Counted from the first letter of the stretch, positions 12,807 through 33,113 are shown. The stretch is 64,000 nucleotides of DNA from Lentisphaeria bacterium (GCA_013215875.1 JABSQK010000021.1:477-64476), one strand, 5' to 3'. The notes: generated from the sequence alone by a model not told the origin. A program made the numbers and translations.

Positions 12807-12816
12807 CTGATTTTTT

Positions 12817-15560: not shown

Positions 15561-15562
15561 TT

Positions 15563-16186
15563 ATGGCCGACCATATAAATTTAGCTTTAAATTCGATATT
15601 CGTAGAAAACATTCTGCTGGCATACTTCCTGGGCATGTGTTCATTCCTTGCTTGTTCTAACAAAGTGAAGACTGCCTTTGGTCTTGGCCTGGCAGTGGTC
15701 TTCGTATTAGCAATTACCGCACCTGCAAACTGGGCCTTGAATGAGTACGTTCTGAAAGCGGGCGCTCTGCAATGGACCGGCAACGATACACTTGCTGCCA
15801 TGGATTTAAGCTACCTCAGCTTTATCTCCTTTATTGCTGTGATCGCCGCAATGGTGCAGCTCGTGGAGATGTTTATCGAAAAGACCTCCGATAGTTTATA
15901 TAATTCGCTGGGTATCTTTCTACCACTCATCACTGTGAACTGCTCGATTCTGGGTACATCACTCTTCCTGGTTGATCGTGAATACGGTTTAGCTCAGTCT
16001 GTGAATTTTGGTATCAGCTCTGGAGTGGGCTGGTTTTTAGCCATCATTTGTATGGCGGCAATTCGTCATAAGATTCGTTACTCCAATGTACCACGCGGAC
16101 TTCGCGGACTTGGCATTACAATGATGGTCACAGGGTTAATTGCATTTGGCTTTATGGCCTTTGCAGGTATCGATCTCAAATCTTAA
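15563..16186 (+). CDS. nqrE: Na+-NQR subunit E
   Basis: 207 aa, NqrE/RnfA-type (SIFVENILLAYFLGMCSFLA). Starts 2 nt after nqrD. Confidence 0.9.
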   Translation: MADHINLALNSIFVENILLAYFLGMCSFLACSNKVKTAFGLGLAVVFVLAITAPANWALNEYVLKAGALQWTGNDTLAAMDLSYLSFISFIAVIAAMVQLVEMFIEKTSDSLYNSLGIFLPLITVNCSILGTSLFLVDREYGLAQSVNFGISSGVGWFLAIICMAAIRHKIRYSNVPRGLRGLGITMMVTGLIAFGFMAFAGIDLKS

Positions 16187-16211
16187 ATTATAGCATAGGA
16201 TTCAATACGAC

Positions 16212-17480
16212 ATGTTTATAGCAGAGTTCACCATCGACGGGCCTTATATTATCACAAGCTTAGTTTACTTTATTTTACTGCTTGTTATTTTATCTATTGG
16301 CTTAATTTTTGCATTTTCAAAACTCGGGACTACAGGCAAGGTCACATTATCTATCAATGGTGAAAAAGAGATCTCTGTCGACGCCGGGCAAACCTTACTC
16401 GGAACGCTTTCAAACAATGGTATTCTGCTGCCCTCTGCTTGTGGCGGAGGCGGTACTTGTGGTGTTTGCCGTTGCCGTGTTTTAGAAGGCGGTGGTGATA
16501 TTGGCCCGACGGAAATCGGCCATATATCGCGCGGTGAAGCGAAAGAAAACTGGCGTCTGTCATGCCAGCTAAAAGTAAAGGGCGACATGGTTATCGAAGT
16601 GCCTGAAGAAGTCTTTGGTATCAACGAATGGGAATGCGAAGTCGTTTCCAATGAAAATGTCGCAACTTTTATTAAAGAATTTGTCATGCGTTTGCCGCCC
16701 GGTGAAAACCTTAATTTCCAATCCGGCGGTTACATTCAAATTGAAATTCCACCCTTTGAAATTGATTACAAAAATTTTATTGTCGAAGACGAATACCGTT
16801 CTGACTGGGATAAATTCGATGCCTGGCAGTTCAAAGCAGTCAACAAGGAAACAGTTATACGTGCCTATTCCATGGCCAATCACCCCGCAGAAGGTGATAT
16901 TGTCATGCTCAATATTCGCATCGCAACTCCACCGCCAGACCGCAGTCATCCGTCGGGCTGGGCACAAGTGCCTCCTGGAATTGCCACCTCCTATATTTTT
17001 GATCAAAAACCAGGTGATAAATGTAAAATCTCCGGGCCATATGGTGAATTTTACATAAAAGACACAGACAAAGAAATGATTTATATCGGTGGCGGTGCTG
17101 GCATGGCACCCTTACGCTCGCACATTTTCCACTTATTTCATACCCTAAAGACTGGCCGTAAGGTCTGCTATTGGTATGGGGCTCGTACACGCAGGGAAAT
17201 TTTCTATGAGGACCATTTCCGTAAAATAGAAGAAGAGTTTGATAACTTCTCTTTCCACATCGCTTTAGATAACCCGCTTCCCGAAGATAACTGGGAAGGC
17301 CATAAGGGCTATATTCATAATGTTGTACATGACGAATTCCTTGTACATCATGAATCCCCTGAAGATTGTGAATATTACCTTTGCGGGCCTCCGATTATGG
17401 CCACATCTGTAATAACAATGCTAGATAGTCTCGGTGTCGATGAAGAGACCAGTATCTTCAAAGACGACTTCGGCGGCTAA
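16212..17480 (+). CDS. nqrF: Na+-NQR subunit F (TM anchor, 2Fe-2S ferredoxin, FAD/NADH domain)
   Basis: 422 aa with N-terminal TM helix, [14 protein letters not shown], the RAYSMAN FAD motif and GGGAGMAPL. Confidence 0.95.
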
Positions 17481-17495
17481 GAACAAAACAATTTC

Positions 17496-17525
17496 AAAGC
17501 CCTTCATTTATGAAGGGCTTTTTTC
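17496..17525. terminator. bidirectional Rho-independent terminator between convergent nqrF and a small minus-strand ORF
   Basis: Perfect 11-bp stem AAAGCCCTTCA / TGAAGGGCTTT (17496-17506 and 17511-17521) with loop TTTA. Flanked by an A-run and a T-run. Confidence 0.8.
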
Positions 17526-17852
17526 GTTTAAAGATTCGTGGATATTATCATCTGTCGGCTCTATCTCAACTGTGTCATCAGTCGCAGACATGGCACTTGG
17601 GAGAACATCAATCTTGTAACGCTGCCCAAGTTTGATGACTGCAAATACGAGAATCGTGCCCGCCGGCAAAGCTATCAGTGCGCCAAGGCCGACAAGTTTA
17701 AGAATGTCCTGGAACTGTTTGAGCGCTGCATCTTTTTCTGCATCGTCAATTTTATCGCGCTTGGCAATACGCAGCAAGACAAACAGCATGTCCTTTGTTT
17801 CGCTGCTTTCTTCCGCAAGTATTTCTTTGAGACGTATTAATTTCTTTTTCAT
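17508..17852 (-). CDS. hypothetical small membrane protein
   Basis: 114-aa ORF with a charged N-terminal helix, one TM segment (LVGLGALIALPAGTILVFAVI) and an acidic tail. Its 3' end runs into the terminator hairpin. Confidence 0.45.
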   Translation of the reverse strand: MKKKLIRLKEILAEESSETKDMLFVLLRIAKRDKIDDAEKDAALKQFQDILKLVGLGALIALPAGTILVFAVIKLGQRYKIDVLPSAMSATDDTVEIEPTDDNIHESLNEKSPS

Positions 17853-17984
17853 AAGAACTGGCCTGATTGATGCTGGAAACTATCTTTTATATACTATTCA
17901 TCCAAAAGTGTGAGAATCAAATGGCAAAATCAGTTCCTGCAAAAGATGCAACTTTAACGAAAAGATACGTTTGGAGAAAATAAG

Positions 17985-18920
17985 GTGTCTGAAATACAGT
18001 ATCAGGGCATAAGATATCAGCTTCCCCCCGGCTCTGACCTCTTGTCAGCACTACTTGAGCAGGATTTACGCATTCCCAACAGCTGCCGGCAGGGGCTCTG
18101 CCATGCCTGCAAAATGATCGCCGATGAAGGCGCTATTCCATCCGAGGCACAAAGCGGGCTGACAGATGCCGAATGCATTCAAAATCAATTTCTGTCATGC
18201 CAATGTTATCCCATATCTGATATGTCCGTACGTTTACCCGATGATGCTGGAAAACGCCTGACTGCAAAGATTCTCTCAAAGACATTGGCGAATGGCCTTA
18301 TTAGTCTCAAAATCGAAAAAGTCATTGATTATCTACCTGGGCAATTTCTGACCCTGTGGAAAGATGATATAAACGGGCGTTGTTATTCCATTGCCTCCTG
18401 CAGTGACGACGCGTTTCTTGAGTTTCACATCAAGCATGTATCCGATGGCGAGTTCAGCGATTGGCTCGCTCACGATGAAATTGCCACGATTGATGTTTCC
18501 AATTTAGCTGGTGACTGCTGTTACCAAACCGCGAGTGACCGCGATATGGTATTAATTGGTTTGGGCACTGGAATGGCACCCTTGTGGGGCATTTTGCGCG
18601 AGGCCCTGATGAAAGGGCATAAAGGTCGTATCATCGTTTACAATGCTGCCCGGGAAAGCAAGAATCTTTATTTATATGATCAATTAAAAGACATCTCCGG
18701 AATCGAATGCAATTTCTCCGTGCGAGAGCACAATAGCGAGCGCCAGGTGGACGTGATTGATATCGATGAGATGATCGATGCCATACTGGAACAAGCAGCA
18801 GAAATGGACTTTTATATCTGTGGATCCGAAAACATGGTGAAGCGTCTAAGGCGCAAAATCTTCATGGCTGGAGCAATGTTATCAAACATCCACTCCGATG
18901 CCTTCATTGCTGCGATATAG
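17985..18920 (+). CDS. soluble 2Fe-2S ferredoxin / FNR-type FAD-NAD(P)H oxidoreductase (NqrF-like fold without TM anchor)
   Basis: 311 aa, GTG start. Plant-type ferredoxin cysteines CRQGLCHACK…SCQC, RCYSIAS (RxYS) and GLGTGMAPL. Confidence 0.75.
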   Translation: MSEIQYQGIRYQLPPGSDLLSALLEQDLRIPNSCRQGLCHACKMIADEGAIPSEAQSGLTDAECIQNQFLSCQCYPISDMSVRLPDDAGKRLTAKILSKTLANGLISLKIEKVIDYLPGQFLTLWKDDINGRCYSIASCSDDAFLEFHIKHVSDGEFSDWLAHDEIATIDVSNLAGDCCYQTASDRDMVLIGLGTGMAPLWGILREALMKGHKGRIIVYNAARESKNLYLYDQLKDISGIECNFSVREHNSERQVDVIDIDEMIDAILEQAAEMDFYICGSENMVKRLRRKIFMAGAMLSNIHSDAFIAAI

Positions 18921-18921
18921 C

Positions 18922-19245
18922 TTATACCTGGTGCTTTCGCTCAGCCAGAAAGCCAAGTAAAACAAAGGTTCCGATCATGGCAACAATCATTGTTATTGTT
19001 GGCATAGAACCGTAAAACTGTATGAGCACTTTTGTCAGCAAAACAGTTGCCAATCCATATCCAAATGCGGCAACCAGTATAAATATGAGCAAGCGCATGT
19101 AAAAGGGATGCTGGCTTATGTGTCTTTTGAGCACATTGTTTATTTCATTGCCATATATGACCAGGATTGTGGCTATAATTGCCATGCATAAATCGGGCAT
19201 TTGGCCCCGCATCCATGAATTGATACTGCCTATAATTTCATTCAT
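18922..19245 (-). CDS. hypothetical 3-TM membrane protein
   Basis: 107-aa hydrophobic ORF, convergent with the previous gene. Confidence 0.5.
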   Translation of the reverse strand: MNEIIGSINSWMRGQMPDLCMAIIATILVIYGNEINNVLKRHISQHPFYMRLLIFILVAAFGYGLATVLLTKVLIQFYGSMPTITMIVAMIGTFVLLGFLAERKHQV

Positions 19246-19350
19246 TTGCTAATTATCCTTTATTATTAACTGCAATTTAAATCGTCAGTAGTCCAGCGCT
19301 AGCGCTGATGGTAATTTACAGTATTTACCAGTAGATTTATTGCAAGTGGT

Positions 19351-20403
19351 TCAGACGCTGACTTCTTTACCTTCATCCTGACTGCGGTATATGCCATCGA
19401 GAATACGCTGGACTTTCAAGGAATCTTCGGGCGGTACCGGGGATGCTTCACCTTTGGACATTGCTTCGGCGAAGGCCACACATTCTTGTGCATGCGGTTC
19501 GCGTATATTGTCGGTTATTTTTAGCTCCCGGTTGTAATGCTGCTGGGTATCGTAATTGCTCGAGTACAGCTCACAACTCGGCCAGTGTGAACCTGATTGG
19601 GTTCCATAAAGCCACATCTGCATATCCTCAACTTTCTCAGAATAATGATGCAAGAGCCAACTCACCTCAAGAATCAGTGTTGCGCCATTATCGAAACGAA
19701 CAAACGCAGAAGCAAAATCTTCCACATCGAAGTTACGAGGGATCGCTCCGCCCCAACAACTAAATGAGCCTTCTTGTTTGGCGATTTCATTGCGTGCCAC
19801 ACCGGTGACAGAGATCGGTTCAGGATTGCCCATAAACCACAAAGTAAGGTCAAGAATGTGCACGCCAATATCAATACACGGGCCGCCACCACTATTTTTC
19901 TTTAAGATAAAACTTTCGCGAACCGCGGCGGCATTTCGCCTTAGCATCCAACTGCGGGCATGATATATCTCGCCCATGCAACCCGTATCAATTTCTGCTT
20001 TCATGGCCATGCTGGTTCCCTGGAAACGAAAGTGCTGCGCAGTCATGAGTTGTTTGCCGGATTTATCCCGGGCTTCTATCATCGTACGGATTTCATCGGG
20101 CGTTGGTGCCAAAGGTTTTTCGCATATGACATGTTTGCCGGCCGCTAGGGCATCGAGGACAATTTGTGTATGGTAATTGCTTGGGGTGCAAACATCGATG
20201 ATATCAATAGACGGGTCATCAAGCAGATCTTTATAATCGGCAGAAATTTTTGTGACATCGTGATCTTTCGCAAATTTGTTCAGGCTGGTTTCATCAAGGT
20301 CCGCGCCGCCGACAAGTTCGGCATATTCTGTATCTTTCCATCCCGCTATATGTGTTCGGGCAATTCCGCCCACACCAATGATTGCAACATTCATTTTACT
20401 CAT
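19351..20403 (-). CDS. Gfo/Idh/MocA-family NAD(P)-dependent oxidoreductase
   Basis: 350 aa with Rossmann N-terminus MNVAIIGVGGIARTH and the EKP motif (VICEKPLA). Confidence 0.85.
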   Translation of the reverse strand: MSKMNVAIIGVGGIARTHIAGWKDTEYAELVGGADLDETSLNKFAKDHDVTKISADYKDLLDDPSIDIIDVCTPSNYHTQIVLDALAAGKHVICEKPLAPTPDEIRTMIEARDKSGKQLMTAQHFRFQGTSMAMKAEIDTGCMGEIYHARSWMLRRNAAAVRESFILKKNSGGGPCIDIGVHILDLTLWFMGNPEPISVTGVARNEIAKQEGSFSCWGGAIPRNFDVEDFASAFVRFDNGATLILEVSWLLHHYSEKVEDMQMWLYGTQSGSHWPSCELYSSNYDTQQHYNRELKITDNIREPHAQECVAFAEAMSKGEASPVPPEDSLKVQRILDGIYRSQDEGKEVSV

Positions 20404-20528
20404 AAGACTCTCCTTTAAGTGATTATCTAGAACTAATCAGTTAAAGCAAAGAAGTCAAATTCAACGTGTCGAATTACTGGTTTAATTATGGTTTTGCTGA
20501 TCCGGAGTTGCCATTCATGATGAGAATG

Positions 20529-21050
20529 TCAATCAAGTTCAATGAGTGCATCGATGCGGGTATCGCCCAGTTTTGCTCGGCCATTTAGAAACTTCAGTTC
20601 CATCAGAAAGCAGAATGCTTTCACATGTCCACCAATGGTTTCTACTAGTTTTACCGCCGCTTCCGCCGTACCCCCGGTGGCTAATACATCATCTATTAGG
20701 AGGACTTGGTCACCATTTGCCACAGCATCCTTGTGCAGCTCCAATTCACTTGAGCCATATTCCAGATCGTAGCTCACCTTGACTGTTTCCCAGGGCAATT
20801 TGCCTTTCTTGCGCATCATGCTTAAGCCAATACCCATTTTATATGCCAGGGCAGAGCCAAAAATGAACCCGCGAGCATCAATAGCGATAATTTTATTGAT
20901 CTCGTCTTTTTCATATTTTTGGGCCATGAGGTCGATCGTGCGCTTGAATAATACCGGGTCTTCGAGGATCGGAGAAATGTCTTTGAAAATGACTCCCTCG
21001 CTTGGGAAGTCTTTTACATCCCGCATGGCGTTTAATATTTTATCAGGCAT
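20529..21050 (-). CDS. apt: adenine phosphoribosyltransferase
   Basis: 173 aa with PRPP-binding motif VLLIDDVLATGGTA and typical Apt length and N-terminus. Confidence 0.9.
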   Translation of the reverse strand: MPDKILNAMRDVKDFPSEGVIFKDISPILEDPVLFKRTIDLMAQKYEKDEINKIIAIDARGFIFGSALAYKMGIGLSMMRKKGKLPWETVKVSYDLEYGSSELELHKDAVANGDQVLLIDDVLATGGTAEAAVKLVETIGGHVKAFCFLMELKFLNGRAKLGDTRIDALIELD

Positions 21051-21064
21051 AACGATTCCTTTCT

Positions 21065-21547
21065 TTATTTTGCTGCATTCGAGCTGATCCCTCCAGCGAT
21101 AAATCGTATATCCTGCACTTCATCGCCGGCAATCGCCTTCACCCGCTCCAGAATATCAGCCTTTAAAGGCTCAAGCTTAAAGCGAATAAGTGAATTAAAG
21201 ATTTCGACATTCAGCAGTTTATTTTCGAGAGATCTTGGGCTGGCATATTTACTGAATTCAATACCGACTACTTTGTCCCATTCACTGACGAGTTTGCGCA
21301 AGGTGACTTTATCATCCATATTCCATTTTTGAAACAGGGTATCGAGGACCTCGTTGACGGATTTTTCTTTTGATTGTTTTGCCTCGATTTCGAGGTAACC
21401 ATTGTCACCATACCAACTCTTCATCAGTCGCTCGCGAGCATTTTCCTCTGAACTGCGTACACGATAGCCGTGCGATTTCTTGTGGTGATCTTTTGGAGCC
21501 ATCCACCCTGAATCTTTTTTCTCGTCTTCTTTCATGCTATTAACCAT
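21065..21547 (-). CDS. DUF721/DciA-like protein
   Basis: 160 aa. The C-terminal half (WDKVVG…A.P.SLENKLLNVEI.NS…L…IL) resembles DUF721. Confidence 0.5.
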   Translation of the reverse strand: MVNSMKEDEKKDSGWMAPKDHHKKSHGYRVRSSEENARERLMKSWYGDNGYLEIEAKQSKEKSVNEVLDTLFQKWNMDDKVTLRKLVSEWDKVVGIEFSKYASPRSLENKLLNVEIFNSLIRFKLEPLKADILERVKAIAGDEVQDIRFIAGGISSNAAK

Positions 21548-21673
21548 ATGATAAATAAAAGCCGATACAACAGTAAGACAAAAAAATCGAGGCGCTATTT
21601 GTGTGTGTTTCTGCGCTCATTTATTGCCATTCCATCTCTGCCCTGTACAGTATTTACTTCAAAGGGAATCCAT

Positions 21674-22354
21674 ATGATACGCGAAAATATAAATAAAATT
21701 CAAGATGAAATAAAGGCTTCATTGCTGGCATCCGTTTTGAAGCAGGATCTAAAGTTGATTGCTGTGAGTAAATACCATACGACAACTGCGATTCTCGAGG
21801 CGCATGCTGCCGGGCAGCGCTGCTTTGGCGAAAGCCGTGTTCAGGAGCTCCTGGAAAAAAAGAGCGGTCTTCCAGATGATATTGAATGGCATATGATTGG
21901 CCACCTGCAGGGCAATAAGGTGAAAGATGCGATCGCATGCAGCGACTATATTCATGGCGTGGATTCTCTGAAGTTGCTAAAACGTATTGATCTATTGGCC
22001 AGCGAATCAGGTACAATCCAGAACTGTTTGTTGCAGGTAAATATATCCGGCGAAGATGCTAAAAGTGGCTTTTCTGCCGATGAACTAAGGCAAGCAGTAG
22101 AGCAAATTCTCGCCTTAAAGTCTGTTAATCCCTGTGGATTAATGACCATGGCACCAATCACAGCAGATGAGACGGAACTCTCAGAAATCTTTTCCTCGAC
22201 TCGTATTCTGCGCGATTCCCTTGAGGAATCAGGCATGTGCCTGCCAGAATTATCAATGGGTATGAGCCGCGATTATAAATCTGCAATTAAACAAGGTGCT
22301 ACCATGGTTCGTATCGGTACAGCACTATTTGGGCCCGCAGAAAAGACCCATTGA
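21674..22354 (+). CDS. yggS: YggS-family pyridoxal-phosphate homeostasis protein
   Basis: Start moved to ATG 21674 (MIRENINKIQDEI). Motifs LIAVSKYHT (PLP Lys), HMIGHLQGNK, LSMGMSRDY. The 42 upstream codons in the ORF track look non-coding. Confidence 0.85.
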   Translation: MIRENINKIQDEIKASLLASVLKQDLKLIAVSKYHTTTAILEAHAAGQRCFGESRVQELLEKKSGLPDDIEWHMIGHLQGNKVKDAIACSDYIHGVDSLKLLKRIDLLASESGTIQNCLLQVNISGEDAKSGFSADELRQAVEQILALKSVNPCGLMTMAPITADETELSEIFSSTRILRDSLEESGMCLPELSMGMSRDYKSAIKQGATMVRIGTALFGPAEKTH

Positions 22355-22479
22355 TTCTAGCCTGCATAATTCATTTTATTCATAAAATCTAAAGAGAATT
22401 ACTCAAAGTGAGTATGAACTTTATACACTTTGTATATAGTAAGTATAATGTATTAAAAAATACACGGTTCTGTGGTCAA

Positions 22480-23676
22480 ATGAATGGTAACTTACTAATA
22501 CATCTGGATTATTGCTTAACGCCAATGACGCGTCTAAACAATGCTGCCATTGTGATTGAAGACGGTATGATTCAGTCTGTCGGAGGGTTTTCTGCCTTTG
22601 TAAACCTTGAAGATTACGACATTATCGAGATGCCTGGCTGTTATGCAATTCCCGGCTTTCTTGATTCGCGACTCTATGGTGCAGCTAAATTTGACTGTAT
22701 GCATGCGGATAAGTCAGAAAAAATTAATGAAATGTCCACCGCCCTGGCAACACACGGTGTTACATCTTTTTTACCCACCACACAATCGTGTCCCCATGAA
22801 CAGCTTTTATCAGTAGTGGAAGCTTTGTCATATCGGGTCGATGACGAAAAGCTACCCGGAGCTGTGCCCTGTGGTATTCATATAGAGGGTCCCTACCTCT
22901 CAGAAGAAAAACGCGGCGCACACCCGGCTGAATATTTACAGCCTATCGACATTGCAAAAGCAAAAGAAATTATTGCAGCCGGCAGAGGAAAAATTAAGCT
23001 CTTCACATTTGCCCCGGAGCTCGACCTCAGTTTGGAATTAATCGATCTTTTAGTGGAACACGAAATTGTCCCTTGCATGGGGCATACGATGGCGGGTCAA
23101 GCCTCAATAATGAGAGCGATCGATGCGGGTGCTATTCGCTGTTCGCATCTCTATAATGGTATGGGCGCACTCGAGCAACGAAATGTCGGGCTCGCGGCAA
23201 TTGCCATGACAGATGACCGTATCTGGGTAGAGCTAATTCCAGATGGTGTGCATTTTCACTGGGGAATGCTGGAGCTTGCTTGTAGATCAATTCGCAAGGA
23301 TCGCATAATTGCCGTATCGAATTCCACCGAAGCAGCAGGCCTGGCGGATGGGGATTACCATTTAGGCGACAGAGATATTACTGTTAGGTATGGTAAAGCA
23401 ACACTCGAGGATGGTACCATTGCGGGTTCGACAAACTTCCTCGCGCAAAATTATCGTAATCTCATGGAACATAGCAATCTCAGTCATGAAGAAGCATCTG
23501 CCGCCTTTTCATTAAATCCTGCTTTAAGCATCGGTGCTCGAAATCGTGGAAAAATTAAGCCCGGTAAGCGTGCCGACATTACCATCCTGGATGACAATAA
23601 CAGAGTGAAAATGACGATTGTTGAAGGGCGCATTGTTTATCAAAATGAGAATTATCTTGCTGTGGCAAATACCTAA
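22480..23676 (+). CDS. nagA: N-acetylglucosamine-6-phosphate deacetylase
   Basis: Motifs PGFLDSRLYG, HIEGPYLSEEKRGAHP, FTFAPEL, CMGHT, HLYNGM, ELIPDGVHF. Start taken at ATG 22480 (MNGNLLIH). The last 4 codons (…ANT*) come from repeat-derived sequence. Confidence 0.85.
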   Translation: MNGNLLIHLDYCLTPMTRLNNAAIVIEDGMIQSVGGFSAFVNLEDYDIIEMPGCYAIPGFLDSRLYGAAKFDCMHADKSEKINEMSTALATHGVTSFLPTTQSCPHEQLLSVVEALSYRVDDEKLPGAVPCGIHIEGPYLSEEKRGAHPAEYLQPIDIAKAKEIIAAGRGKIKLFTFAPELDLSLELIDLLVEHEIVPCMGHTMAGQASIMRAIDAGAIRCSHLYNGMGALEQRNVGLAAIAMTDDRIWVELIPDGVHFHWGMLELACRSIRKDRIIAVSNSTEAAGLADGDYHLGDRDITVRYGKATLEDGTIAGSTNFLAQNYRNLMEHSNLSHEEASAAFSLNPALSIGARNRGKIKPGKRADITILDDNNRVKMTIVEGRIVYQNENYLAVANT

Positions 23677-23724
23677 TCATCAAGTTAGGTATTCTGATAT
23701 TATCATCCGGGATGACAATAACAG
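23604..23724. repeat. 121-bp repeat unit, copy 1 (last 60 nt of nagA coding sequence + 46-nt hairpin-containing segment + 15 nt GGATGACAATAACAG)
   Basis: Nearly identical to 27306-27426, with one T/G difference that I saw. Contains the 9-bp inverted repeat AATACCTAA / TTAGGTATT. Confidence 0.9.
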
Positions 23725-24670
23725 CAGTTTTGGCGATCTTAAATAAAAGAGATTTCTTATCAGAAATTTCTCTTACACTTCCTGCCATTTCTTTAGCAAC
23801 TTTACGTTCAGCTTTTACTTGTATCTTATGGACAATCTGGATCAATAAATTTGTTAATCCGTCAATAACCCCTTCACGTCTCTCCATACAAAATGCTGCC
23901 AAAAGTGGATGCCGTATATAATCAGGATGACGGCGTAATTCCCGTACTGGTTCACGCATTGTTCGAGTGTAGTATTGGTTTCGTATTTTATACCATTTAA
24001 TTGAAAATAAGTCTGAGGGTAAATCCAAATCATTCACAATTTTCAACTTCGACAACTCAATTAATATGCTACTTAGACAAGGCTTTCCTGGATCATTCTT
24101 CAAAAGAACTAAAGAAGCTGATGTATCATCGTTATGTATTTGTAAAAGCTGATCGAGAGCATATCCATTTTCACTGCTAAGTTTCTGAGAAATAGATTGA
24201 TACCGGAACTCTTCAAGCCTGGTACTAACCGAGTTAATTATTCTTTCTTCTCGTAAATATGTTGGCCGTTCAATCTTATTATTCTTAAACCATTCTTTTA
24301 AAGAATCTTCTAAGTTAATTTCGATCCAAACTTCTTTTAACGATATCTTGGTCAGCTCCGATTGGGCTATTTCCAAATCCGTTGATGACGCTGTTCTGAA
24401 ACGCAGAAACTCCCGCACATCGTGTCGCATGCGTTTGCCTGTACGGTCCAGGTAATCATAAGATAAATCAACGAGGTCATCAGATATTTTTAGCAAAGAA
24501 GATAAACTCTTCCGTATAATATCGGGGATATGCCCAAAACTTTCAGGGAAGCGGCTCTCTATTTGGAAATGCTTAAGAAGAACTGCACATTTCAAACGGT
24601 TTTCTTTGCGGTAATTGCTGATAAAAGCAGATTCAGGTTTGGATAAATCGTACAAATAAAATTTTGGCAT
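23725..24670 (-). pseudogene. tnpA: Tn3-family transposase, N-terminal fragment (about aa 1-315, DUF4158 region)
   Basis: MPKFYLYDLS…RFPESFGHIP…LRRHPDYIRHPLLAAFCMERREGVIDGLTNLLIQIVHKI matches the Tn3 TnpA N-terminal layout. The ORF-track extension to 23579 is the antisense of the nagA repeat. Confidence 0.8.
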
Positions 24671-25328
24671 GCTGAAAATCTCCTGTGTATTAGAATACTC
24701 AAGGATTATTCATAGCACGTTTGGCCCCATATGACAGCTACGCTCACTTTACCCCTTATAACAATAAACCAGCGAAAGATTCGTTACATGCCCTGTATAC
24801 TTTATGTTTTTATACAGTCATTATTAATTCATTGTAAAGAACTTATAAAGTCTCGGATTAATTTAGAAAAATGTTTTAATTGTCGGATCTTATCAGTAAA
24901 ATTAGACTCTAATAGACACACACACAAAACACAAAATAGAAAGTACCAAGGGATGACACGGCAGGAAATTCTACAAGATACGGGGAAAATGTTCATTTCA
25001 TTTCTCCCATTATGGCGATAGGTTTCTGACAAACCATGTAGAACCAAATTCATCCTATAGTTCTGGATATGCTAATAATAATGGTGCGTATGTCGGTTAT
25101 GGCTATAAGCCAGATGGTCAAGGAATCGTCTATGGTGACGGTCATGGTGAATTTAAAGGCAATACTTATTATAGAGACAGAATAGCGGTCAATAGTCCAT
25201 CTGTAATGGGTGTGGCAAATACTCCTGGAAGTGGTTTGTTTTTCTACTGGGAAGGATCGCCAAGATAACCTTTTAGATAAAAGATGCACCAAAGTAATAA
25301 CCAACAAAAAATAAAAAAAGGAAAGAAA

Positions 25329-25799
25329 ATGAAAAACATCTACAAAGTAATGGTTTTAATAGCCATGTCATGCCTGAGTTTAAATGCACAAGAAAAAGAA
25401 ACTAAGGTTGATCCAGACATCGCATGTGCGACTGCATCGATTAAAGCATATCGGGCACTCAAGCTTAATAAGGAACTTCAAGATCCAGTAAGAAGCAAAT
25501 GGGATATTTATCACAAAGAGGCAGAAGCCAGTTTTAATGATGCCTATGAAATACTCGGTAAAGCTGTAAATGAAGAGCAGGCAAAAAAGAAGGAAGAAAT
25601 AGACAAGGAATTCATAAAAGAAGCAAATGAGCGTAAAGCAAAAATGTATAGGAAATGGCATACGGAATTTGTAAAAAAAGAATATATCATTTGGCAATCC
25701 GAACGTACTGAAATAATCAAGAAATATACAGCGCTTAATTATTATTTTGAATACCTTAAAAATATGAAACATACACCAAAGAAGCAGATATGGATATGA
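25329..25799 (+). CDS. hypothetical secreted Lys/Glu-rich protein (island cargo)
   Basis: ATG at 25329 preceded by AAGGAAAG. Signal peptide MKNIYKVMVLIAMSCLSLNAQE. 156 aa with a coiled-coil-like composition. Confidence 0.5.
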   Translation: MKNIYKVMVLIAMSCLSLNAQEKETKVDPDIACATASIKAYRALKLNKELQDPVRSKWDIYHKEAEASFNDAYEILGKAVNEEQAKKKEEIDKEFIKEANERKAKMYRKWHTEFVKKEYIIWQSERTEIIKKYTALNYYFEYLKNMKHTPKKQIWI

Positions 25800-26255
25800 G
25801 CAAGGTTGCTGTTTTATATATAGAAATTGCTACCAGCTCCAAAAAACAATCAGATGCATTCAAAAAAGTCATTGCTAAAATGAAAGCTAAATCTGTAGAA
25901 ATGAGTGAAGTAAAAAAGGATGCTAAAATGTGGGTCGATATTCACTTTGGCAGAAATAAAGATCAATGAAATATTTATTTTTCGTATGCATGTCCAATAA
26001 TGGGTATCCTTACATAAAGGTACGTAACGCGACATAGGATATTTTAAGCCTCTACAGATCTTATTTTGGAGGCAATATCCTGCGTTATGATCTATGTAAT
26101 GGAGACCCATTTTTCACTGGTGTCTAAGGTATTTTGAGCTCAATTATGTCCTTGATTCAGCGAATCTGAGTAATCATGGCCTTTCTATACAGTTTTTCTG
26201 CCAATTGTAAATTGATGAATAAATTAGTTTTATCTAGCTTCTAGGGTATTTGGGT

Positions 26256-27305
26256 TTACATTGCATTCAACGCGATCCACAGCTCTCCCCAAACCTGAGA
26301 TTGCCTAACCTGGAGCGTCGCATTAACTACTTTAGCTATCGCTGCTTTTAAACTCGGTTTATGGATATACCGCTCTTTTACATAGCGCAATTCATCTTGT
26401 GTAACTTCTTCCCCACCTGCTAAAACTCGTTTTATACCAGTATTGGTCCCAAGAGCATACAGACACAACAGTAAGCGCTTTTGAAGAACATCGCGTGTTA
26501 AGATTTCCCTATCGCCATAGCTTTTCAAAATGCTTGTAAAATCAATCTGGTAATCAGCCTCTTTAAGAATATCCAGTAGGCTGGTCATCGGCCATTGCAC
26601 CATGACCTTTGATTTTAAATGTTTTAAAAATGAAGGTTCCACTTGTGGTACTAGTGGCGAAACTTTAATTAGGTTTTTACCATGTTGCCGAATCGATACG
26701 TCATTATTTTTAGACAACCCTGTATCTAGTGTGCGTAAAGCTATTTCCATACGGGACTGTAGATTCTGAATGAAATCCTCCGAGTTTTCTGGAAGCTTAA
26801 GCTCATCATAGTATGTGTTTCTTTTTTCTTCAAAATCTTCTGGAATATCTTCATCCGGATTGCGATATCGACGTGCTCCTTTAACCCATATTTCACGACA
26901 CCTCAAGCCATTTCTTAGTGCTTTCAATACACAAATTTCATAGCTTATACGGTTTATTTTCTCATCCTCAATAAGAAGCAGTTGCAATGACTTGGGCACA
27001 ATACCTTCAACGGGTAAATTATCTACTGACAAGATTCTTTGGTTAGAATCGAGAGATTTCAAAGTATTTACAGCATTAATAATAGGGCGATGATGTTGAT
27101 TATTACAGCGAAATATTAAAGCATTAATTAGTGGGGACATCATTCGTCGGTAATGGCTTTTAAACGAATTGCGGGCTACGTGCTGGACCTGCTCTATATA
27201 AGATGGGCTGCTAGCTTCAAATTCTCTAACCAGATCTCTGAATATGCTTTCGCTGACGACTGGATAAAGTGCATCTCGGATTTTCGAATCAGGATTCTCC
27301 AATAC
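26256..27305 (-). pseudogene. tnpA: Tn3-family transposase, middle fragment (about aa 316-675), truncated before the DDE catalytic domain
   Basis: LENPDSKIRDALYPVV…YRRMMSPLINALIFRCNN…ISYEICVLKALRNGLRCREIWVKGARRYRNPDEDIP…LYALGTNTGI…QVWGE. It then diverges and stops where Tn3 TnpA has WGGGEVASADG. Confidence 0.8.
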
Positions 27306-27486
27306 AGTGAAAATGACGATTGTGGAAGGGCGCATTGTTTATCAAAATGAGAATTATCTTGCTGTGGCAAATACCTAATCATCAAGTTAGGTATTCTGAT
27401 ATTATCATCCGGGATGACAATAACAGAGTGAAAATGACGATTGTGGAAGGGCGCATTGTTTATCAAAATGAGAATTACCTTGCTGT
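27306..27486. repeat. 121-bp repeat copy 2 (27306-27426) plus partial copy 3 (27427-27486), which runs into a probable ancestral nagA end (…NENYLAVTS*)
   Basis: Direct sequence comparison with 23604-23724. Copy 3 diverges after CTTGCTGT into AACAAGTTAA. Confidence 0.9.
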
Positions 27487-27500
27487 AACAAGTTAAGTAC

Positions 27501-28733
27501 TCAGGTACGATATTCCGCATTAATTTTCACATACTCATAACTTAAGTCACAGGTCCATGCAGTGTATTCACCGTCGACCAGGCCAAGGTCAACCTCGAGA
27601 AAAATTTCATCCCTGTTGATTAGTTTGTACATCTCGTCTTCTGATAGCCCCGCATCCTGCCCTGATTTTACCACCTGTACGCCCGAGTAATACAGATTGA
27701 ATTCACCCGTATTTATATTAACTCCCGAGTAGCCCGCGGCATCGAGGATCCGCCCCCAATTGGGGTCTGCACCAAACCAGGCCGTTTTACATAGCAGTGA
27801 ATTGGCAATTGCTTTTGCACAGGTTTCAGCATCCCCATCATTTTCTGCGCCGACGACTTTTACCTCCACAAATCGTGTCGCTCCCTCAGCATCAAGGATC
27901 AACATCCGGGCCAGTTCGGCGGCCACATAGTTAAAGGCTTCTTGAAATTTTGCCGCTTCGGCGGACCCTCTACGAATCATTGAATTACCTGCTAAGCCAT
28001 TGGCCATACAAATAAAACTGTCGTTGGTACTGGTATCGCCATCTATGGTTATACGATTAAAGGATTGATTCAGTGATTGATCAAGTATCTCCGATAAGAG
28101 GCCCTCTTCGAGAAGCACATCCGTAGTGATATAGGCCAGCATTGTTGCCTCTTTTTCTGCTGTCTTCATCTTTGGAGCGATCATCCCGGCCCCTTTAGAC
28201 ATGCCGCCTATAATTACATCGGTTCCATCAATATCAATTTTAACTGCAATGGATTTTGCTACTGTGTCCGTGGTCATTATCGCTTCTGCAGCTTTTGCTC
28301 CACCCGTCGCATTTCTGGCCTCGCAGCATTTTTTAATCCCGGCTTTTACAATTTCCATTGGCAAAGGCACGCCGATTCTACCCGTTGAAAAAACAAGTAC
28401 TTCTGATGGATCTATATTTAAAAGGTCGGCTGTATCTGCAGCCATATGCGAGGCATTTGTCCAGCCCTGGCGACCTGTACAGGCGTTGGCATTGCCACTA
28501 TTTATAATGCAGGCATGGATGGTCTTTGAATTTTTATGCACCTGTTTGCAATAGACGACCGGAGCTGCAGCAAATGCATTCTGGGTATATGAGCCCGCAA
28601 ACTGACAGGCAGTGGCCGAATAAATTACAGCCATATCTTCTTTGCCGCTTTCTTTCAGTCCAGCAATGATTCCCGCTGCTTCAAAACCCTGGGCTGAACA
28701 AACGGTTCCATTTTCTAATTTTTCATAATGCAT
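27501..28733 (-). CDS. argJ: bifunctional glutamate N-acetyltransferase / amino-acid acetyltransferase
   Basis: 410 aa with the autoprocessing site context KEATMLAYITTD. The rest of the sequence is ArgJ-like throughout. Confidence 0.9.
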   Translation of the reverse strand: MHYEKLENGTVCSAQGFEAAGIIAGLKESGKEDMAVIYSATACQFAGSYTQNAFAAAPVVYCKQVHKNSKTIHACIINSGNANACTGRQGWTNASHMAADTADLLNIDPSEVLVFSTGRIGVPLPMEIVKAGIKKCCEARNATGGAKAAEAIMTTDTVAKSIAVKIDIDGTDVIIGGMSKGAGMIAPKMKTAEKEATMLAYITTDVLLEEGLLSEILDQSLNQSFNRITIDGDTSTNDSFICMANGLAGNSMIRRGSAEAAKFQEAFNYVAAELARMLILDAEGATRFVEVKVVGAENDGDAETCAKAIANSLLCKTAWFGADPNWGRILDAAGYSGVNINTGEFNLYYSGVQVVKSGQDAGLSEDEMYKLINRDEIFLEVDLGLVDGEYTAWTCDLSYEYVKINAEYRT

Positions 28734-29058
28734 CTTCTAAATTACCTCTAAGCTGCCAATTCATAAACCATGTGAGACGGACTAATATAATTTTATTTCA
28801 GCACATTTCGAAAAAAAATGAATAATATACCCCCGCCATTTACCAGATTCGTTTTTTATGGCTAATATTTGCAGTTCTGCCTCTTGAGGAAACTATCCTG
28901 GATAATTCATAAACCATCTACTACAAGCGCGAACTGCTGCAGTATTAGCAGTTTTATAACTGACGATGATTTTGAAGTGCTTCAGCCTGAGCCTCAGTTG
29001 AACTGCTTGAATAATAGCTGATTGCGTCTATCTTTGGCCCTTCAACGAGATGATTTAG

Positions 29059-29115
29059 ATGACGTTTATAAGCAATTATTTTTATTACTGGTTTAGCCGC
29101 AGGAGGAATTCCTGA
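29059..29115 (+). CDS. candidate attenuation leader peptide MTFISNYFYYWFSRRRNS
   Basis: 18-codon ORF that I translated myself. Seven of 18 residues are aromatic (3 Phe, 3 Tyr, 1 Trp), six of them consecutive (codons 7-12). The stop lies inside and adjacent to the antiterminator arm. Located 82 nt upstream of the DAHP synthase start. Confidence 0.6.
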   Translation: MTFISNYFYYWFSRRRNS

Positions 29116-29172
29116 GTCGGTAACGATGACTTTATTCCTCCTCTGAAACATTCGTTTCAGGGGATTTTTTTT
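29101..29172 (+). promoter_or_regulatory. mutually exclusive antiterminator / terminator structures upstream of DAHP synthase
   Basis: Antiterminator: AGGAGGAAT (29101-29109) pairs with ATTCCTCCT (29134-29142). Terminator: CCTCTGAAAC (29140-29149) pairs with GTTTCAGGGG (29154-29163), loop ATTC, followed by T8 (29165-29172). The two structures share 29140-29142. Confidence 0.6.
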
Positions 29173-29196
29173 ATATTTATTACAAAAGGACAGTAC

Positions 29197-30237
29197 GTGG
29201 AAACTACACAAGATTTGCATATAAAAAGCATCCGGAAGCTGATTACTCCGGCGGAATTAAAACAACAAATTCCAATGACTGAAGCCGCCAATGATACCGT
29301 GGTCACTGCACGCAAAACCGTGAAAAAAATTATGGCCGGCGGCGATGATCGTTTCATTGTTATTACCGGTCCTTGCTCAATACATGACCCTGAAATTGCC
29401 TACGACTATGCCCGCCGACTGAAGCCCCTCATCGACAAATATGCCGATAAACTTGTGATCTTGATGCGCGTTTATTTTGAAAAACCACGCACCACTGTTG
29501 GCTGGCGTGGATTGATTAATGACCCGGGCCTTGATGGTACACGGGATGTTGAAAAAGGCATTGCCTTGGGACGTGAAATTCTCATGAAAATCAATGAAAT
29601 GGGGGTCGCAGTCGCAAGTGAAGTACTCGACCCGGTGACGCCTCAATACATGGCCGACCTCATCAGCTGGTCAGCTATTGGCGCCCGTACTACGGAATCT
29701 CAAACCCATCGCGAAATGACCAGTGGGCTCTCCATGCCAGTGGGATTTAAAAATAGTACCGAAGGCAACTTGCAGGTTGCGATCGATGCGATGATCTCTG
29801 CTATGCATGAGCACAGTTTTCTTGGAATCGACCAAAATGGCAATACATCAATTGTTGAAACCATGGGAAATAAATGGTCGCATATCGTTCTTCGTGGTGG
29901 TCGCAGTGGTGTAAACTTTCATGCAGAAAATATAAAAGAGACTGAGATTGCCATGGAAAAAGCAGGTGTAAAGCCATTGATCATGGTGGATTGCAGTCAT
30001 GCAAATTCCAATAAACGTTTCGATTTGCAGCCCGAAGTTTACCGTGATGTACTTGCTCAGCGGGCAAGTGGTACGCGTTCGATTATCGGCGTGATGCTCG
30101 AATCCAATATAAATGAAGGCAAACAAAGTATTCCGGACGATTTGTCAAAATTGCAATACGGTGTATCAGTGACAGATGGATGCATCAGTTGGGAAGCAAC
30201 TGAAGAGCTACTCCAGGAATCATACGACCAGTTATAA
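29197..30237 (+). CDS. aroG: 3-deoxy-7-phosphoheptulonate (DAHP) synthase, class I
   Basis: 346 aa, GTG start 7 nt after AAGGA. Motifs FIVITGPCSIHD, KPRTTVGWRGLINDP, VDCSHANS. The isozyme (Phe/Tyr/Trp-sensitive) cannot be assigned. Confidence 0.9.
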   Translation: METTQDLHIKSIRKLITPAELKQQIPMTEAANDTVVTARKTVKKIMAGGDDRFIVITGPCSIHDPEIAYDYARRLKPLIDKYADKLVILMRVYFEKPRTTVGWRGLINDPGLDGTRDVEKGIALGREILMKINEMGVAVASEVLDPVTPQYMADLISWSAIGARTTESQTHREMTSGLSMPVGFKNSTEGNLQVAIDAMISAMHEHSFLGIDQNGNTSIVETMGNKWSHIVLRGGRSGVNFHAENIKETEIAMEKAGVKPLIMVDCSHANSNKRFDLQPEVYRDVLAQRASGTRSIIGVMLESNINEGKQSIPDDLSKLQYGVSVTDGCISWEATEELLQESYDQL

Positions 30238-30251
30238 TCAAGGAGATTGAA

Positions 30252-30827
30252 ATGCCAAGACCACCGATATTGCCTATACCTGACAGAGAAGCAATTTTTA
30301 ATAGCGGCACAAGCTGGGATGACTGGCTGGCAAATCCAGATGAAGCAAGCCAGGGTGCAAGCCTCAAGGAATTTTACGAATCATACGAACTAAGCGATGC
30401 AACAAAGGCCAGCCTGCAAGCACTCGATGGCAAGGTAAATATCATCGCCATAGCCGAAACATGGTGCGGCGATGTGATTCGTCATACGCCCCTACTGATT
30501 AAAATGGTGGAAGCTGCTGGTGATAAGGCAGACATTCGTTTCGTTACCCGAGCGCAGAATACAGACTTTTTTACACGCTTTGTTACCAATGGCGGCGAAG
30601 CAATTCCAAAATTTGTTTTTTGCAGCCGCGAGTTTGTTGAGGTCGGTAATTGGGGCCCTATGTCAACGACGCCTCGCAAATGGATAGCCCAGGGAAAAGC
30701 CGCTGGCGATGTCGGCGCTGCCCGGAAAAAGGTCGGGGAATTCTACACGAATGACAACGAAGTGGAAGCGACTAAAGATTTTCTCGAGCTATTTGAAACT
30801 GCGACCTTAACAAGCTTCCCGGAATAA
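30252..30827 (+). CDS. thioredoxin-fold family protein
   Basis: 191 aa with AETWCGD (single-Cys Trx-like motif). SD AAGGAG upstream. Confidence 0.6.
   Translation: MPRPPILPIPDREAIFNSGTSWDDWLANPDEASQGASLKEFYESYELSDATKASLQALDGKVNIIAIAETWCGDVIRHTPLLIKMVEAAGDKADIRFVTRAQNTDFFTRFVTNGGEAIPKFVFCSREFVEVGNWGPMSTTPRKWIAQGKAAGDVGAARKKVGEFYTNDNEVEATKDFLELFETATLTSFPE
30784..30827. repeat. 44-bp direct repeat, copy 1 (the 3' end of the thioredoxin-like CDS)
   Basis: TCGAGCTATTTGAAACTGCGACCTTAACAAGCTTCCCGGAATAA recurs at 32959-33002 with one C/T change. Confidence 0.9.
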
Positions 30828-30948
30828 ACAAACTGAGTTTTTAATTCATAAAGAAAAATGAGAACGTATTCCGGTACATATTTGCTTTGCTAAATGTAAA
30901 TGATTTCATACTCATTGACATACCAGATTCGCATTTCTATATTCTGCC

Positions 30949-32733
30949 ATGCCAATCATCTCAAATCGTGGCAAGGCCCACTTTCACATTAGCCTTCCCC
31001 TGGATCCGAGTGAACAGGAGTGCTATGCCGCCACTCAGTTACAGCACTATTTAAGCAAAGTATCTCAAGCCCAATTCGAGATAAACCGGGAGTCCATACG
31101 AGATTCCAATAGCATCCGACTTCAGTCCTGCAATTCTGGTGACAGCTATCGGATCGGGGTGACAGACAATAACATCACCATTGAGGGCGGGGATCGAGGG
31201 CTACTTTATGGGGTTTATGACTTTCTTGAGCGATTCACGGGATGCCGGGGGTATAGCCCAGAAATCACCGTTGTGCCAAAATGCCGAATGCTGCGCATAG
31301 CAGAAGGCGAATACAGTGCCAGCCCGGCCTTTATCTCACGTGACACCTGCTATTACCATGCAGTGCAGAATCCAGACTGGGCGGCCATGGCCCGTCTGAA
31401 TGGAAACTCCCTGAGACAGCAACGCCCCGAGCATGGCGGCCGCGTTGCCTTTGCCGAGCCCAGCGTACACAACTGCCATTTCCTCGTGTCACGGGATTAC
31501 TTTGATGAACACCCTGAGTATTTTGCCTTGGTCGATGGTGAGCGTAAGGCGCCGGGTTACCACCTGTGTTTCTCCAATCCCGAGGTGATTCGCATCGCCG
31601 CGGAAACTATGATTTCGTGGATGGATGACAATCCAGACTGCGAGGTCTTCGCTGCTGAGCAGGATGATGGCGGCTTCTGTTGCGAATGTGAGAATTGCAA
31701 AGCCATCGAAGAACGGGAAGGAAGCTACGCGGGAACTGTCCTGCACTGGGTAAATGGTGTTGCTGAGATCTGTGCAGAAATACATCCAGATAAATGTCTG
31801 ATGACACTGGCTTACAGCTTTTCACAAATTCCACCAAAGCAGATGAAAGTTCATCCCAATGTTATTATCCGCTTTGCTCACCTTCTGGAACCCAAATGCG
31901 GTGTACATCCCTTCGATGAATGTGATATGAACAACTGGGCTCTTGAGAACCTGGCCTTATGGAAAGGCATTACGGAGAAAGTGTTCGTCTGGCACTACGC
32001 AACCAACTTCTGGAACTACCTGGTGCCCTTTGCTAACTTCGAATCACTACCCGCTGCTTACCGCCACTACCAAGATCTGGGCATAACCCATATCTATACA
32101 CAGGGAAACCGGCAAAGCCCCCATGGGGAGTTTGCTGAACTACGTACCTGGCTGGCAGGCAAACTCATGTGGGACCCGACCCTTGATGCCACGGCCTTGA
32201 TCGATGAATTCCTAAAAGCCTATTACGGCGGTGCCTGGCGGTCGATCCGCAAGTATATCCACTACCTCCATCAGCGAATCAGCAAGGCGAAAACCCATAT
32301 GTACTGTCTGATGCCCTGCGACTCTTATCTGACTTTAAGAACCATCAACGCCGCGTCACGGATTCTTGATAGAGCCTTCGAAAAAGTAGATCAGGACTCC
32401 CCCGAATATGAACGACTCCTGCCGATTAAGCTTTCTGTATTGTTCACCCGGCTGGTCCTTTCCAACCCCGACCTGAATCCCAATCAACATCAACGTTTCA
32501 TTCCACCGGACTCCTGGGACCAGAGAACCCTCGATGCCGCAACTGAGTTTATTGACCTGTGGGAGGTCTTGGATTTTCCTTATGTCACGGAGATGCACTG
32601 GCGCGTTACCGCTTGGCAAAAGCGTATGGCCTCCCTTTACCAGTTTCTCGGCCGTCCCGTGCCCGATGGTGCGACACGCCACTGGCTCGACCAACCTGTT
32701 GACGCTCCGGTGAACAGTGCGGGTGTGATGTAA
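30949..32733 (+). CDS. DUF4838-like putative glycoside hydrolase family protein
   Basis: 594 aa. The N-terminus (…LPLDPSEQECYAATQLQHYLSKVS…) and overall layout resemble DUF4838. Visibly GC-richer than its neighbours in sampled rows. Confidence 0.55.
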   Translation: MPIISNRGKAHFHISLPLDPSEQECYAATQLQHYLSKVSQAQFEINRESIRDSNSIRLQSCNSGDSYRIGVTDNNITIEGGDRGLLYGVYDFLERFTGCRGYSPEITVVPKCRMLRIAEGEYSASPAFISRDTCYYHAVQNPDWAAMARLNGNSLRQQRPEHGGRVAFAEPSVHNCHFLVSRDYFDEHPEYFALVDGERKAPGYHLCFSNPEVIRIAAETMISWMDDNPDCEVFAAEQDDGGFCCECENCKAIEEREGSYAGTVLHWVNGVAEICAEIHPDKCLMTLAYSFSQIPPKQMKVHPNVIIRFAHLLEPKCGVHPFDECDMNNWALENLALWKGITEKVFVWHYATNFWNYLVPFANFESLPAAYRHYQDLGITHIYTQGNRQSPHGEFAELRTWLAGKLMWDPTLDATALIDEFLKAYYGGAWRSIRKYIHYLHQRISKAKTHMYCLMPCDSYLTLRTINAASRILDRAFEKVDQDSPEYERLLPIKLSVLFTRLVLSNPDLNPNQHQRFIPPDSWDQRTLDAATEFIDLWEVLDFPYVTEMHWRVTAWQKRMASLYQFLGRPVPDGATRHWLDQPVDAPVNSAGVM

Positions 32734-32846
32734 AAACGGACAGCATTTTTTGCAGCGCACTCTCAATATTCAGTGGATTGAGTGAATTACGGCCATGAGA
32801 TAACTCCGTTCGTACTGCATTATTAGGTGTTCGATATTCGTTATTG

Positions 32847-32877
32847 CCCAAGCTTTTTACGAAGTAAAAGCTTTGGG
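32847..32877 (+). terminator. hairpin terminator candidate downstream of the DUF4838 gene
   Basis: CCCAAGCTTTT … AAAAGCTTTGGG stem with one bulge and loop TACGAAGT, followed by ATTTTA. Confidence 0.45.
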
Positions 32878-32958
32878 ATTTTACGACTTTGTTTTGGCAC
32901 TTGGTAGCACTTTTACTCGCAAGCTCACTGCTCGTTACCTTATTCGCCGAAGTTTATT

Positions 32959-33002
32959 TCGAGCTATTTGAAACTGTGACCTTAACAAGCTTCCCGGAAT
33001 AA
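32959..33002. repeat. 44-bp direct repeat, copy 2 (orphan duplicate of the thioredoxin-like gene 3' end including its stop)
   Basis: 43/44 identity to 30784-30827. There is no upstream ORF that it could terminate. Confidence 0.9.
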
Positions 33003-33113
33003 TTTAGCTATTATCAGTTACGGGGACACCAAGAAATTCTCCAATTTCCGCCGCATCCGTTTGAATGCGCCTGTGGTTGCCATTGTCAATAATATTCAAT
33101 TCATGTGAATCCA

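Follow-up and report, generated by a model that had tools for sequence, protein, structure and literature searches.

The DNA analyzed here is a 64,000-nucleotide stretch (hereafter, the window) from a Lentisphaeria bacterium (GCA_013215875.1, JABSQK010000021.1:477-64476), whose genome is a 5.49-Mb metagenome-assembled genome (MAG) of 876 contigs with 5% contamination. The locus of interest lies between two convergent genes: nagA, coding for N-acetylglucosamine-6-phosphate deacetylase (22480..23676, plus strand; TIGR00221, 3.7e-80), and argJ, which is intact (27501..28733, minus strand; PF01960, 3.3e-139, and NF003802). Comparison with a 95% identical protein (P0001) points to MNGNLLIHLDY as the likely start of NagA. 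A sequence-only reading of the window had noticed that the 3′ end of nagA is present here in three copies and that the copies are interrupted by a 3.58-kb insert containing two fragments of a Tn3-family transposase gene, tnpA. Reading of positions 23300-27700, together with a repeat finder, copy-by-copy comparison and profile matches, confirmed the three copies and located both the repeats and the two tnpA fragments at the places where they had been put.

The full repeat unit is 121 nt long and consists of 89 nt derived from nagA (GAYATTAYCATCC...CTTGCTGT, from position 23575), followed by a 32-nt spacer, GGCAAATACCTAATCATCAAGTTAGGTATTCT. Unit A (23575..23695, plus strand) contains the working nagA tail and the first spacer copy (23664..23695, plus strand), which forms a hairpin with 9-bp arms at 23668-23676 and 23685-23693. 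The present nagA stop codon, TAA at 23674-23676, is located inside the left hairpin arm, and the nagA frame is complete, with a new five-residue tail (...AVANT*); NagA tails differ widely among relatives. Unit B is divided in two: its first part, B′ (23696..23724, plus strand, 29 nt with a prefix of the C type), runs up to junction J1, and its remainder, B′′ (27308..27397, plus strand, 90 nt), starts at junction J2 and includes the second spacer copy (27366-27397). Unit C (27398..27496, plus strand) is the displaced ancestral 3′ end of nagA (...NENYLAVTS*), a decaying relic that ends at a TAA located four bases from the convergent argJ stop. The sequence-only reading had divided the unit into 60, 46 and 15 nt; we find that 14 nt of the proposed 46-nt non-coding segment are diverged nagA codons, that the repeated part of nagA is 89 nt rather than 75 nt, and that the real spacer is 32 nt long. 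Placement of the insert exactly at a unit boundary holds only in the phase used in that reading; in the natural phase, 29 nt of unit B precede the insert. No other occurrence of the unit or of the 32-nt spacer was found in the MAG, with up to six mismatches allowed. The unit and the spacer are thus confined, within the MAG, to the nagA locus, which rules out that they belong to a common dispersed repeat, a possibility that had also been raised.

The two tnpA fragments occupy the two ends of the insert, both on the minus strand. The N-terminal fragment (23725..24670) corresponds to residues 1-316, includes the DUF4158 domain (PF13700) and matches positions 10-316 of the 954 positions of profile NF033527. 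The middle fragment (26283..27307) corresponds to residues about 317-659 of 972 and ends at a conserved WGE ahead of the DDE residues; the open reading frame (ORF) that contains it, 27305-26256, matches positions 324-658 of the same profile. When joined in silico, the fragments give 666 codons in one frame, and the joined sequence aligns to full-length 972-aa relatives in a single local alignment with 99% coverage and 65-66% identity. Conservation is lower in the N-terminal than in the middle part, by the same ratio as among the relatives themselves, so both fragments come from one gene. The earlier proposal that they are adjacent parts of one TnpA is therefore borne out by the profile positions, by the colinear join and by the matching identity ratios. 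At the join, exactly one residue fewer is present in 13 of the 13 relatives examined. It follows that the tnpA breakpoints at J1 and J2 coincide within 3 nt and that the insert carries a small duplication, the CAG present at either end. TnpA homology stops at the WGE (26283-26285), residue 659 of 972, before the catalytic DDE residues; the alignment places the internal joint near 26282/26283 and not at the stop codon of the ORF. DNA searches and tblastn revealed neither other Tn3-family coding sequence nor an intact transposon or donor locus in the MAG. The two "transposase" ORFs of ~360 aa at this locus are chimeric read-throughs of one dead gene, and they provide a caution for annotation that such pairs can have this origin.

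At J1, the end of B′ at 23724 (...CAATAACAG) is followed by CAGTTTT..., and at J2, tnpA sequence ending in ...CCAATACAG is followed by TGAAAATG..., with which B′′ begins at 27308. The two partners share 8 of 9 nt at the break (ACAATAACAG in nagA and CCAATACAG in tnpA), and the CAATA(A)CAG pointed out in the sequence-only reading is indeed shared by both junctions. The two parts of the target meet at a single point: B′ (29 nt) and B′′ (90 nt) together make one 121-nt unit lacking at most AG, i.e., the two target ends coincide within 2 nt. There is no 5-bp target-site duplication in the junction sequences, and profile searches detected no integrase or resolvase domains between nagA and argJ.

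The insert contains a single 38-bp Tn3-type terminal inverted repeat (GGGGTAAAGTGAGCG... on the minus strand; 24719..24756), whose outer end is at 24755/24756; the junctions lie inside tnpA, so no inverted repeat is found at either of them. Homology with an intact element in another genome (GCA_018399685.1, L023) begins exactly at the inverted repeat: upstream of the tnpA start, conservation is observed only from GGGGTAAAGTGAGCGTAGCTGT inward. Since this homology stops at the inverted repeat, the DNA from 24757 to ~26282 (donor-site flank, 24757..26282, ~1.5 kb, no strand assigned) once flanked the transposon and is not its cargo. The insert is therefore not simply a dead transposon, as had been suggested, and, more generally, DNA found between transposase fragments is not necessarily transposon cargo. 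The flank holds the C-terminal remnant of a prepilin-type protein (last ~85 codons, about 25013-25270, plus strand), an intact paralogue of which is present on MAG contig C18, and two small ORFs (25329-25799 and 25790-25969, both plus strand) with 68% identical paralogues on MAG contig C835; across the two contigs, the identity of the flank paralogues is 68-75%. Prepilin-type proteins of this kind are typical of the PVC group. Given this content of the flank, the donor was a Lentisphaerota-like genome; it was recovered neither from the MAG nor from the protein collection. For the 156-aa ORF of the flank, the protein collection contained no homologue apart from the window's own.

A second 38-bp Tn3-type inverted repeat, 35/38 identical to the one in the insert, is present on MAG contig C534 (2396-2433), 330 nt downstream of a tyrosine-recombinase gene (1029-2066; PF00589, 1.2e-19); there is no transposase gene on this contig. 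This repeat may represent the opposite end of the same element or of a sister element. The second inverted repeat of the intact L023 element was not found within the 13 kb examined.

The closest relative is represented by two assemblies, L019 (a JGI metagenome) and L020 (a Logan assembly), with NagA 95% identical and DNA about 89% identical to those of the window. Both have the same gene order as the window, apt-dciA-yggS-nagA followed by convergent argJ, and neither contains the array or the insert: nagA is located directly against argJ, with its stop codon 1 base from the argJ stop. The nagA tail of L019 (...CTTGCTGAACAAGCTAATTAACTTAGGTTCGATATTCC) is orthologous to copy C, from which it differs by a 1-nt indel. 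Copy C is thus the ancestral nagA end, in agreement with the sequence-only reading, because it is orthologous to the tail of a relative without array or insert. When derived changes are polarized by L019, A carries one substitution, and C carries four substitutions and the 1-nt indel, which causes a frameshift; this pattern would be expected if A is the working copy and C a decaying relic. Unit B has no private substitution, being equal to C over positions 1-79 and to A over positions 48-121. B′ is identical to C positions 1-29. At unit position 47, the ancestral T is kept in A, and B′′ shares the derived G of C. Unit B thus has the make-up of a recent recombinant of C and A, and the pattern is that of a recent unequal crossover.

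The origin of the unit itself, which the sequence-only reading had described as a 75-bp duplication around a foreign 46-nt hairpin segment, may also be traced to the native sequence. The 3′ half of the spacer (CAAGTTAGGTATTC) matches 12 of 14 nt of the native sequence located immediately after the ancestral coding end, from the nagA-stop/argJ-stop region (CAAGTTAAGTACTC; p=0.006 against shuffles), in a colinear position, and ACTTAGGTTCGATATT in L019 resembles AGTTAGGTATTCTGATATT of the spacer. The hexamer GATATT is found at the start of the unit, within nagA, and again directly after the native stop region, within the last codons of argJ. The copies are arranged head to tail, GATATT is present at both boundaries and the sequence is single-copy in L019. 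Judging from these short alignments, the unit looks like the product of a tandem duplication in which ~111 nt of the native nagA-stop/argJ-stop region, delimited on either side by a GATATT microhomology, were copied. The other 10-15 nt of the spacer (GGCAAATACCTAATCAT) contain AATACCTAA, an exact inverted copy of the neighboring TTAGGTATT; we infer that this quasi-palindromic part is a template-switch filler, which would have supplied both the new stop codon and the hairpin. The predicted stability of the hairpin is moderate (-10.9 kcal/mol, z -1.65) and there is no T-run; with such modest stability, we do not claim that it acts as a terminator. A search of the region against RNA families returned only a sub-threshold chance match to a miRNA.

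Several further assemblies contain parts of this locus. In an NCBI assembly, GCA_022969115.1 (L034), the sequence corresponding to window positions 17790-33969 differs by 3 mismatches in 16,180 bases, without gaps, and includes A, B′, J1, the insert, J2, B′′ and C. The third of the assemblies, ENA ERZ23488602 (BioSample SAMN09765692), breaks into three contigs at the array. One of them (L021) covers 26010-27373 at 99.93% identity and thus contains the internal joint, J2 and the start of B′′, all independently assembled. Another (L022) covers 12414-23728 at 99.94% identity; in it, unit A is followed by an uninterrupted unit (...AATAACAGAGTAAAAATG...) that lacks tnpA at the position of J1. The third (L018) covers 27345-31433 and has a more divergent unit tail, ...NKNYLALSNTK*, ahead of C. 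Since J2 is present in L021 and an uninterrupted unit in L022, the ERZ23488602 sample holds the insert as well as an unoccupied allele, and the insert looks polymorphic, as judged from these contigs. Exact-protein look-ups with the J1-spanning ORF and with two versions of a Lys/Glu-rich ORF gave no direct match, and the look-up with a 59-aa ORF led to L034. A 20-mer from the unit gave ten matches in a scan of public metagenomes, all due to chance and none homologous to the window. A search of the literature on the sample and the assemblies returned nothing.

We consider that the locus was probably formed by Campbell-type illegitimate integration of a circular DNA into a tandem duplication of the nagA end, in a sequence of three accidents whose order and circular intermediate we infer. 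In the first and oldest step, a tandem duplication of ~111 nt, which took in the stop and last 29 codons of nagA together with the stop region of argJ and was bounded by the 6-nt GATATT, would have occurred, and its joint would have gained ~10-15 nt of filler, the inverted copy of adjacent sequence described above, giving rise to the hairpin and the new nagA stop. The upstream copy, A, would thereby have become the working tail, and the native tail, C, would have begun to decay. In the second, recent step, an unequal crossover (or slippage) between C and A would have produced the third unit, B. In the third step, also recent, one illegitimate crossover at CAATA(A)CAG, where 8 of 9 nt match, would have brought a circular DNA of ~3.58 kb into B. 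This circle would have contained tnpA codons 1-659, the adjacent transposon inverted repeat and ~1.5 kb of the former flank of the transposon. In the colinear form, tnpA of the circle would read ...CCAATACAG(CAG)TTTTGGCG... across the crossover point, and an allele without the insert would run from AATAACAG straight to AGTGAAAATG. The gene appears circularly permuted because the crossover lay inside it, and the permuted topology recognized in the sequence-only reading is the one expected from single-crossover integration of a circle. From that reading, the ancestral position of C, the adjacency of the tnpA fragments, the shared CAATA(A)CAG and the permutation topology are thus retained, and the plain dead transposon and the 75-bp duplication around a foreign hairpin are replaced.

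One crossover with a circle explains at once why target and donor are each split at a single point, why the order of the donor is permuted, why 8 of 9 nt match at the break, and why the junctions have no inverted repeat or 5-bp duplication and the insert no recombinase or DDE domain. The transposase played no part in the event: what is left of it lacks a DDE domain, and both junctions lie away from the inverted repeat. None of the three events disrupts a gene, and the insert, located in relic sequence between convergent genes with argJ intact, is probably neutral.

Several observations weigh against this history. Reciprocity of the exchange is imperfect, in that either 1-3 nt of the insert (CAG) are duplicated or 2 nt of the target are lost. 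The similarity between the spacer and the native sequence is short. J1 is seen in only two NCBI assemblies, which may share samples or methods. The inner units of the third assembly (the last 85 nt of L022 and the first 86 nt of L018) differ from B by 7-16%, with flanking kilobases 99.5-99.9% identical, and fall outside a simple three-step history; this divergence could be due to hypervariability, to several co-occurring haplotypes or to strain-chimeric contig tips. Searches recovered no free circle, donor locus or intact copy, and no contig with the circle joint. Finally, the internal joint could date from after the integration rather than from before it, and loss of the DDE domain of tnpA before or after integration would fit the sequences equally well.

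The last point leads to an alternative in which a whole replicon, e.g., a plasmid with an intact Tn3-family element, integrated by the same crossover, and a later deletion from tnpA codon 659 to ~26282 removed the DDE domain together with the rest of the replicon. The resulting topology is identical and the internal joint carries no timing information; in addition, relatives of this tnpA are found in plasmid-like contexts (L023 encodes a RepC-like protein, ParE and a resolvase), and the MAG has another Tn3-type inverted repeat beside a tyrosine recombinase on C534. However, a longer insert was seen in no strain, the internal joint is the same in L034 and L021, and the number of events needed is the same, so that such a scheme is not simpler; we regard it as unlikely, yet worth keeping in mind. 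A more distant departure is that the array originally comprised only A and C, and that an insertion with long target duplication copied 121 nt (A positions 30-121 and C positions 1-29), in which case an intact B never existed. The identity of B′ to C positions 1-29 agrees with this, and the same window does contain an insertion of such a type, a DUF4838 gene between ~46-bp copies, absent in L019, with the features listed for this class in PMC2853133. The repeat sequence is single-copy in L019, yet B′′ has the C-type G47 and is thus no plain copy of A 30-121 unless conversion followed; this position favors a pre-existing B over one made by the insertion. A circular or permuted donor would still be needed, and we hold it to be quite improbable that B arose in this way.

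Marginally less probable still is that no circle was involved and that template switching during replication, of the fork stalling and template switching (FoSTeS) or microhomology-mediated break-induced replication (MMBIR) type, copied two stretches of a linear donor in the wrong order. All joints at the locus have at most short homology, and a short inverted filler, such as that of the spacer, is a typical template-switch product, but independent switches are not expected to re-enter tnpA within 3 nt and the target within 2 nt. Mis-assembly, i.e., a short-read metagenome assembler threading an unrelated contig between repeat copies, might be suspected in an 876-contig MAG with 5% contamination, given repeats that are 98-99% identical and a locus that a different assembler broke into three contigs at the array. 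It is nevertheless unlikely, because the sequence shared at the junctions, 4-9 nt, is much shorter than any assembly k-mer, which means that J1 and J2 must exist in the reads, and because the three assemblies agree where they cover the locus: the same structure is present in L034 with three single-nucleotide differences, and J2 and the internal joint are present in L021. We give an artefact very little credence, the least of the explanations considered.

Four further candidates were rejected. The insert is not a product of Tn3 transposition: there are no inverted repeats at both ends, no 5-bp duplication and no DDE domain (TnpA is cut at residue 659 of 972). Integration at an att site by an integrase, with attL and attR on the two sides, does not account for it, as there is no recombinase domain between nagA and argJ and the units are tandem and uninterrupted in L022. 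A diversity-generating retroelement was discarded since the differences between copies (C/T, T/G, T/C) are not confined to adenines and no reverse transcriptase gene was found. Integron attC sites were discarded as well, there being no integrase gene and the substitution pattern and the site being unsuitable.

Campbell-type integration by illegitimate, short-homology recombination is documented for non-replicating plasmids in laboratory bacteria. The nagA insert resembles those cases in being a circular permutation of a colinear donor, with the target split once, a few nucleotides of homology and no recombinase gene; its ends are adjacent in the donor, and an unoccupied site is found in L019, L020 and L022. 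In contrast to the laboratory cases, it occurred naturally in an uncultured bacterium, and the putative circle is a random piece of DNA (one transposon end plus flank) without recognizable replication function. Circular permutation has been taken as a sign of a circular intermediate in wine yeast, for a 17-kb segment acquired by horizontal transfer (PMC3053389).

The array resembles microhomology-mediated (RecA-independent) tandem duplication followed by unequal crossing-over in its head-to-tail copies, the single copy in the closest relative, the 6-nt identity at the boundaries and the recombinant middle unit. It departs from a plain duplication of this kind in that the nagA joint has ~10-15 nt of inverted filler, giving a stop codon and a perfect 9-bp hairpin, and in that it spans the stops of two convergent genes. 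With insertions with long target duplication, as outlined in Furuta et al. 2010 (PMC2853133) after Nobusato et al. 2000, the locus shares integrase-free DNA between direct repeats of >30 bp that are single-copy in the comparator and located at gene 3′ ends; it differs in that the nagA repeats are arranged in tandem and are also found as an array lacking the insert, in that one diagnostic site argues against insertion-made copies and in that restriction-modification genes play no part. Compared to Tn3-family transposons with 972-aa TnpA relatives, such as the element in L023, the insert has the DUF4158 and Tn3-transposase domains and a 38-bp terminal repeat of the GGGG type that precedes the tnpA start by ~50 nt, but it has only one inverted repeat, a TnpA cut at 659, junctions within the gene and no 5-bp duplication, and is thus a passive fragment.

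The locus is an ordinary recombination scar and a new instance of known processes, and not a new mobile element, mechanism or function. Its value is that of a clear natural case in which, at nucleotide resolution, a gene-sized piece of DNA is seen to have entered a bacterial chromosome without a mobility enzyme, with empty and occupied alleles that seem to coexist in one environment.

The DUF4838 gene mentioned above (30827-32956; GC 0.495, with flanks of about 0.44) is bordered on either side by a ~46-bp copy of the 3′ end of a thioredoxin-like gene, stop codon included (30781-30826 and 32957-33002). In L019, the thioredoxin-like gene is followed directly by a PrkA-like gene, with one copy of the repeat and no DUF4838 gene. 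This insertion fits the published features of insertion with long target duplication (PMC2853133) and does so better than the nagA insert. As two independent insertions, the 3.58-kb circle and the DUF4838 gene, are found within 10 kb in the window and neither is present in the relative, one may speculate that duplicated gene ends at convergent-gene junctions in this lineage are recurrent landing pads for integrase-free capture of circularized DNA. We consider this doubtful; if it were true, the hypervariable inner units would result secondarily from recurrent breaks and their repair at the hairpin, and the two insertions would not be mere accidents but examples of a systematic way in which genes are gained.

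The argJ-aroG spacer contains, at 28893-28986, a ~95-nt member of a repeat family that is dispersed over the MAG contigs in >40 copies of 74-92% identity, and a 14-mer that is repeated upstream of argJ lies partly inside it. In L019, a copy of this dispersed repeat is located elsewhere, between yggS and nagA. L019 (4643-5479) also has, compared to window positions 28819-29002, about 650 nt of extra sequence between argJ and the gene for DAHP synthase, which includes a 173-aa ORF with no Pfam match and is absent from the window.

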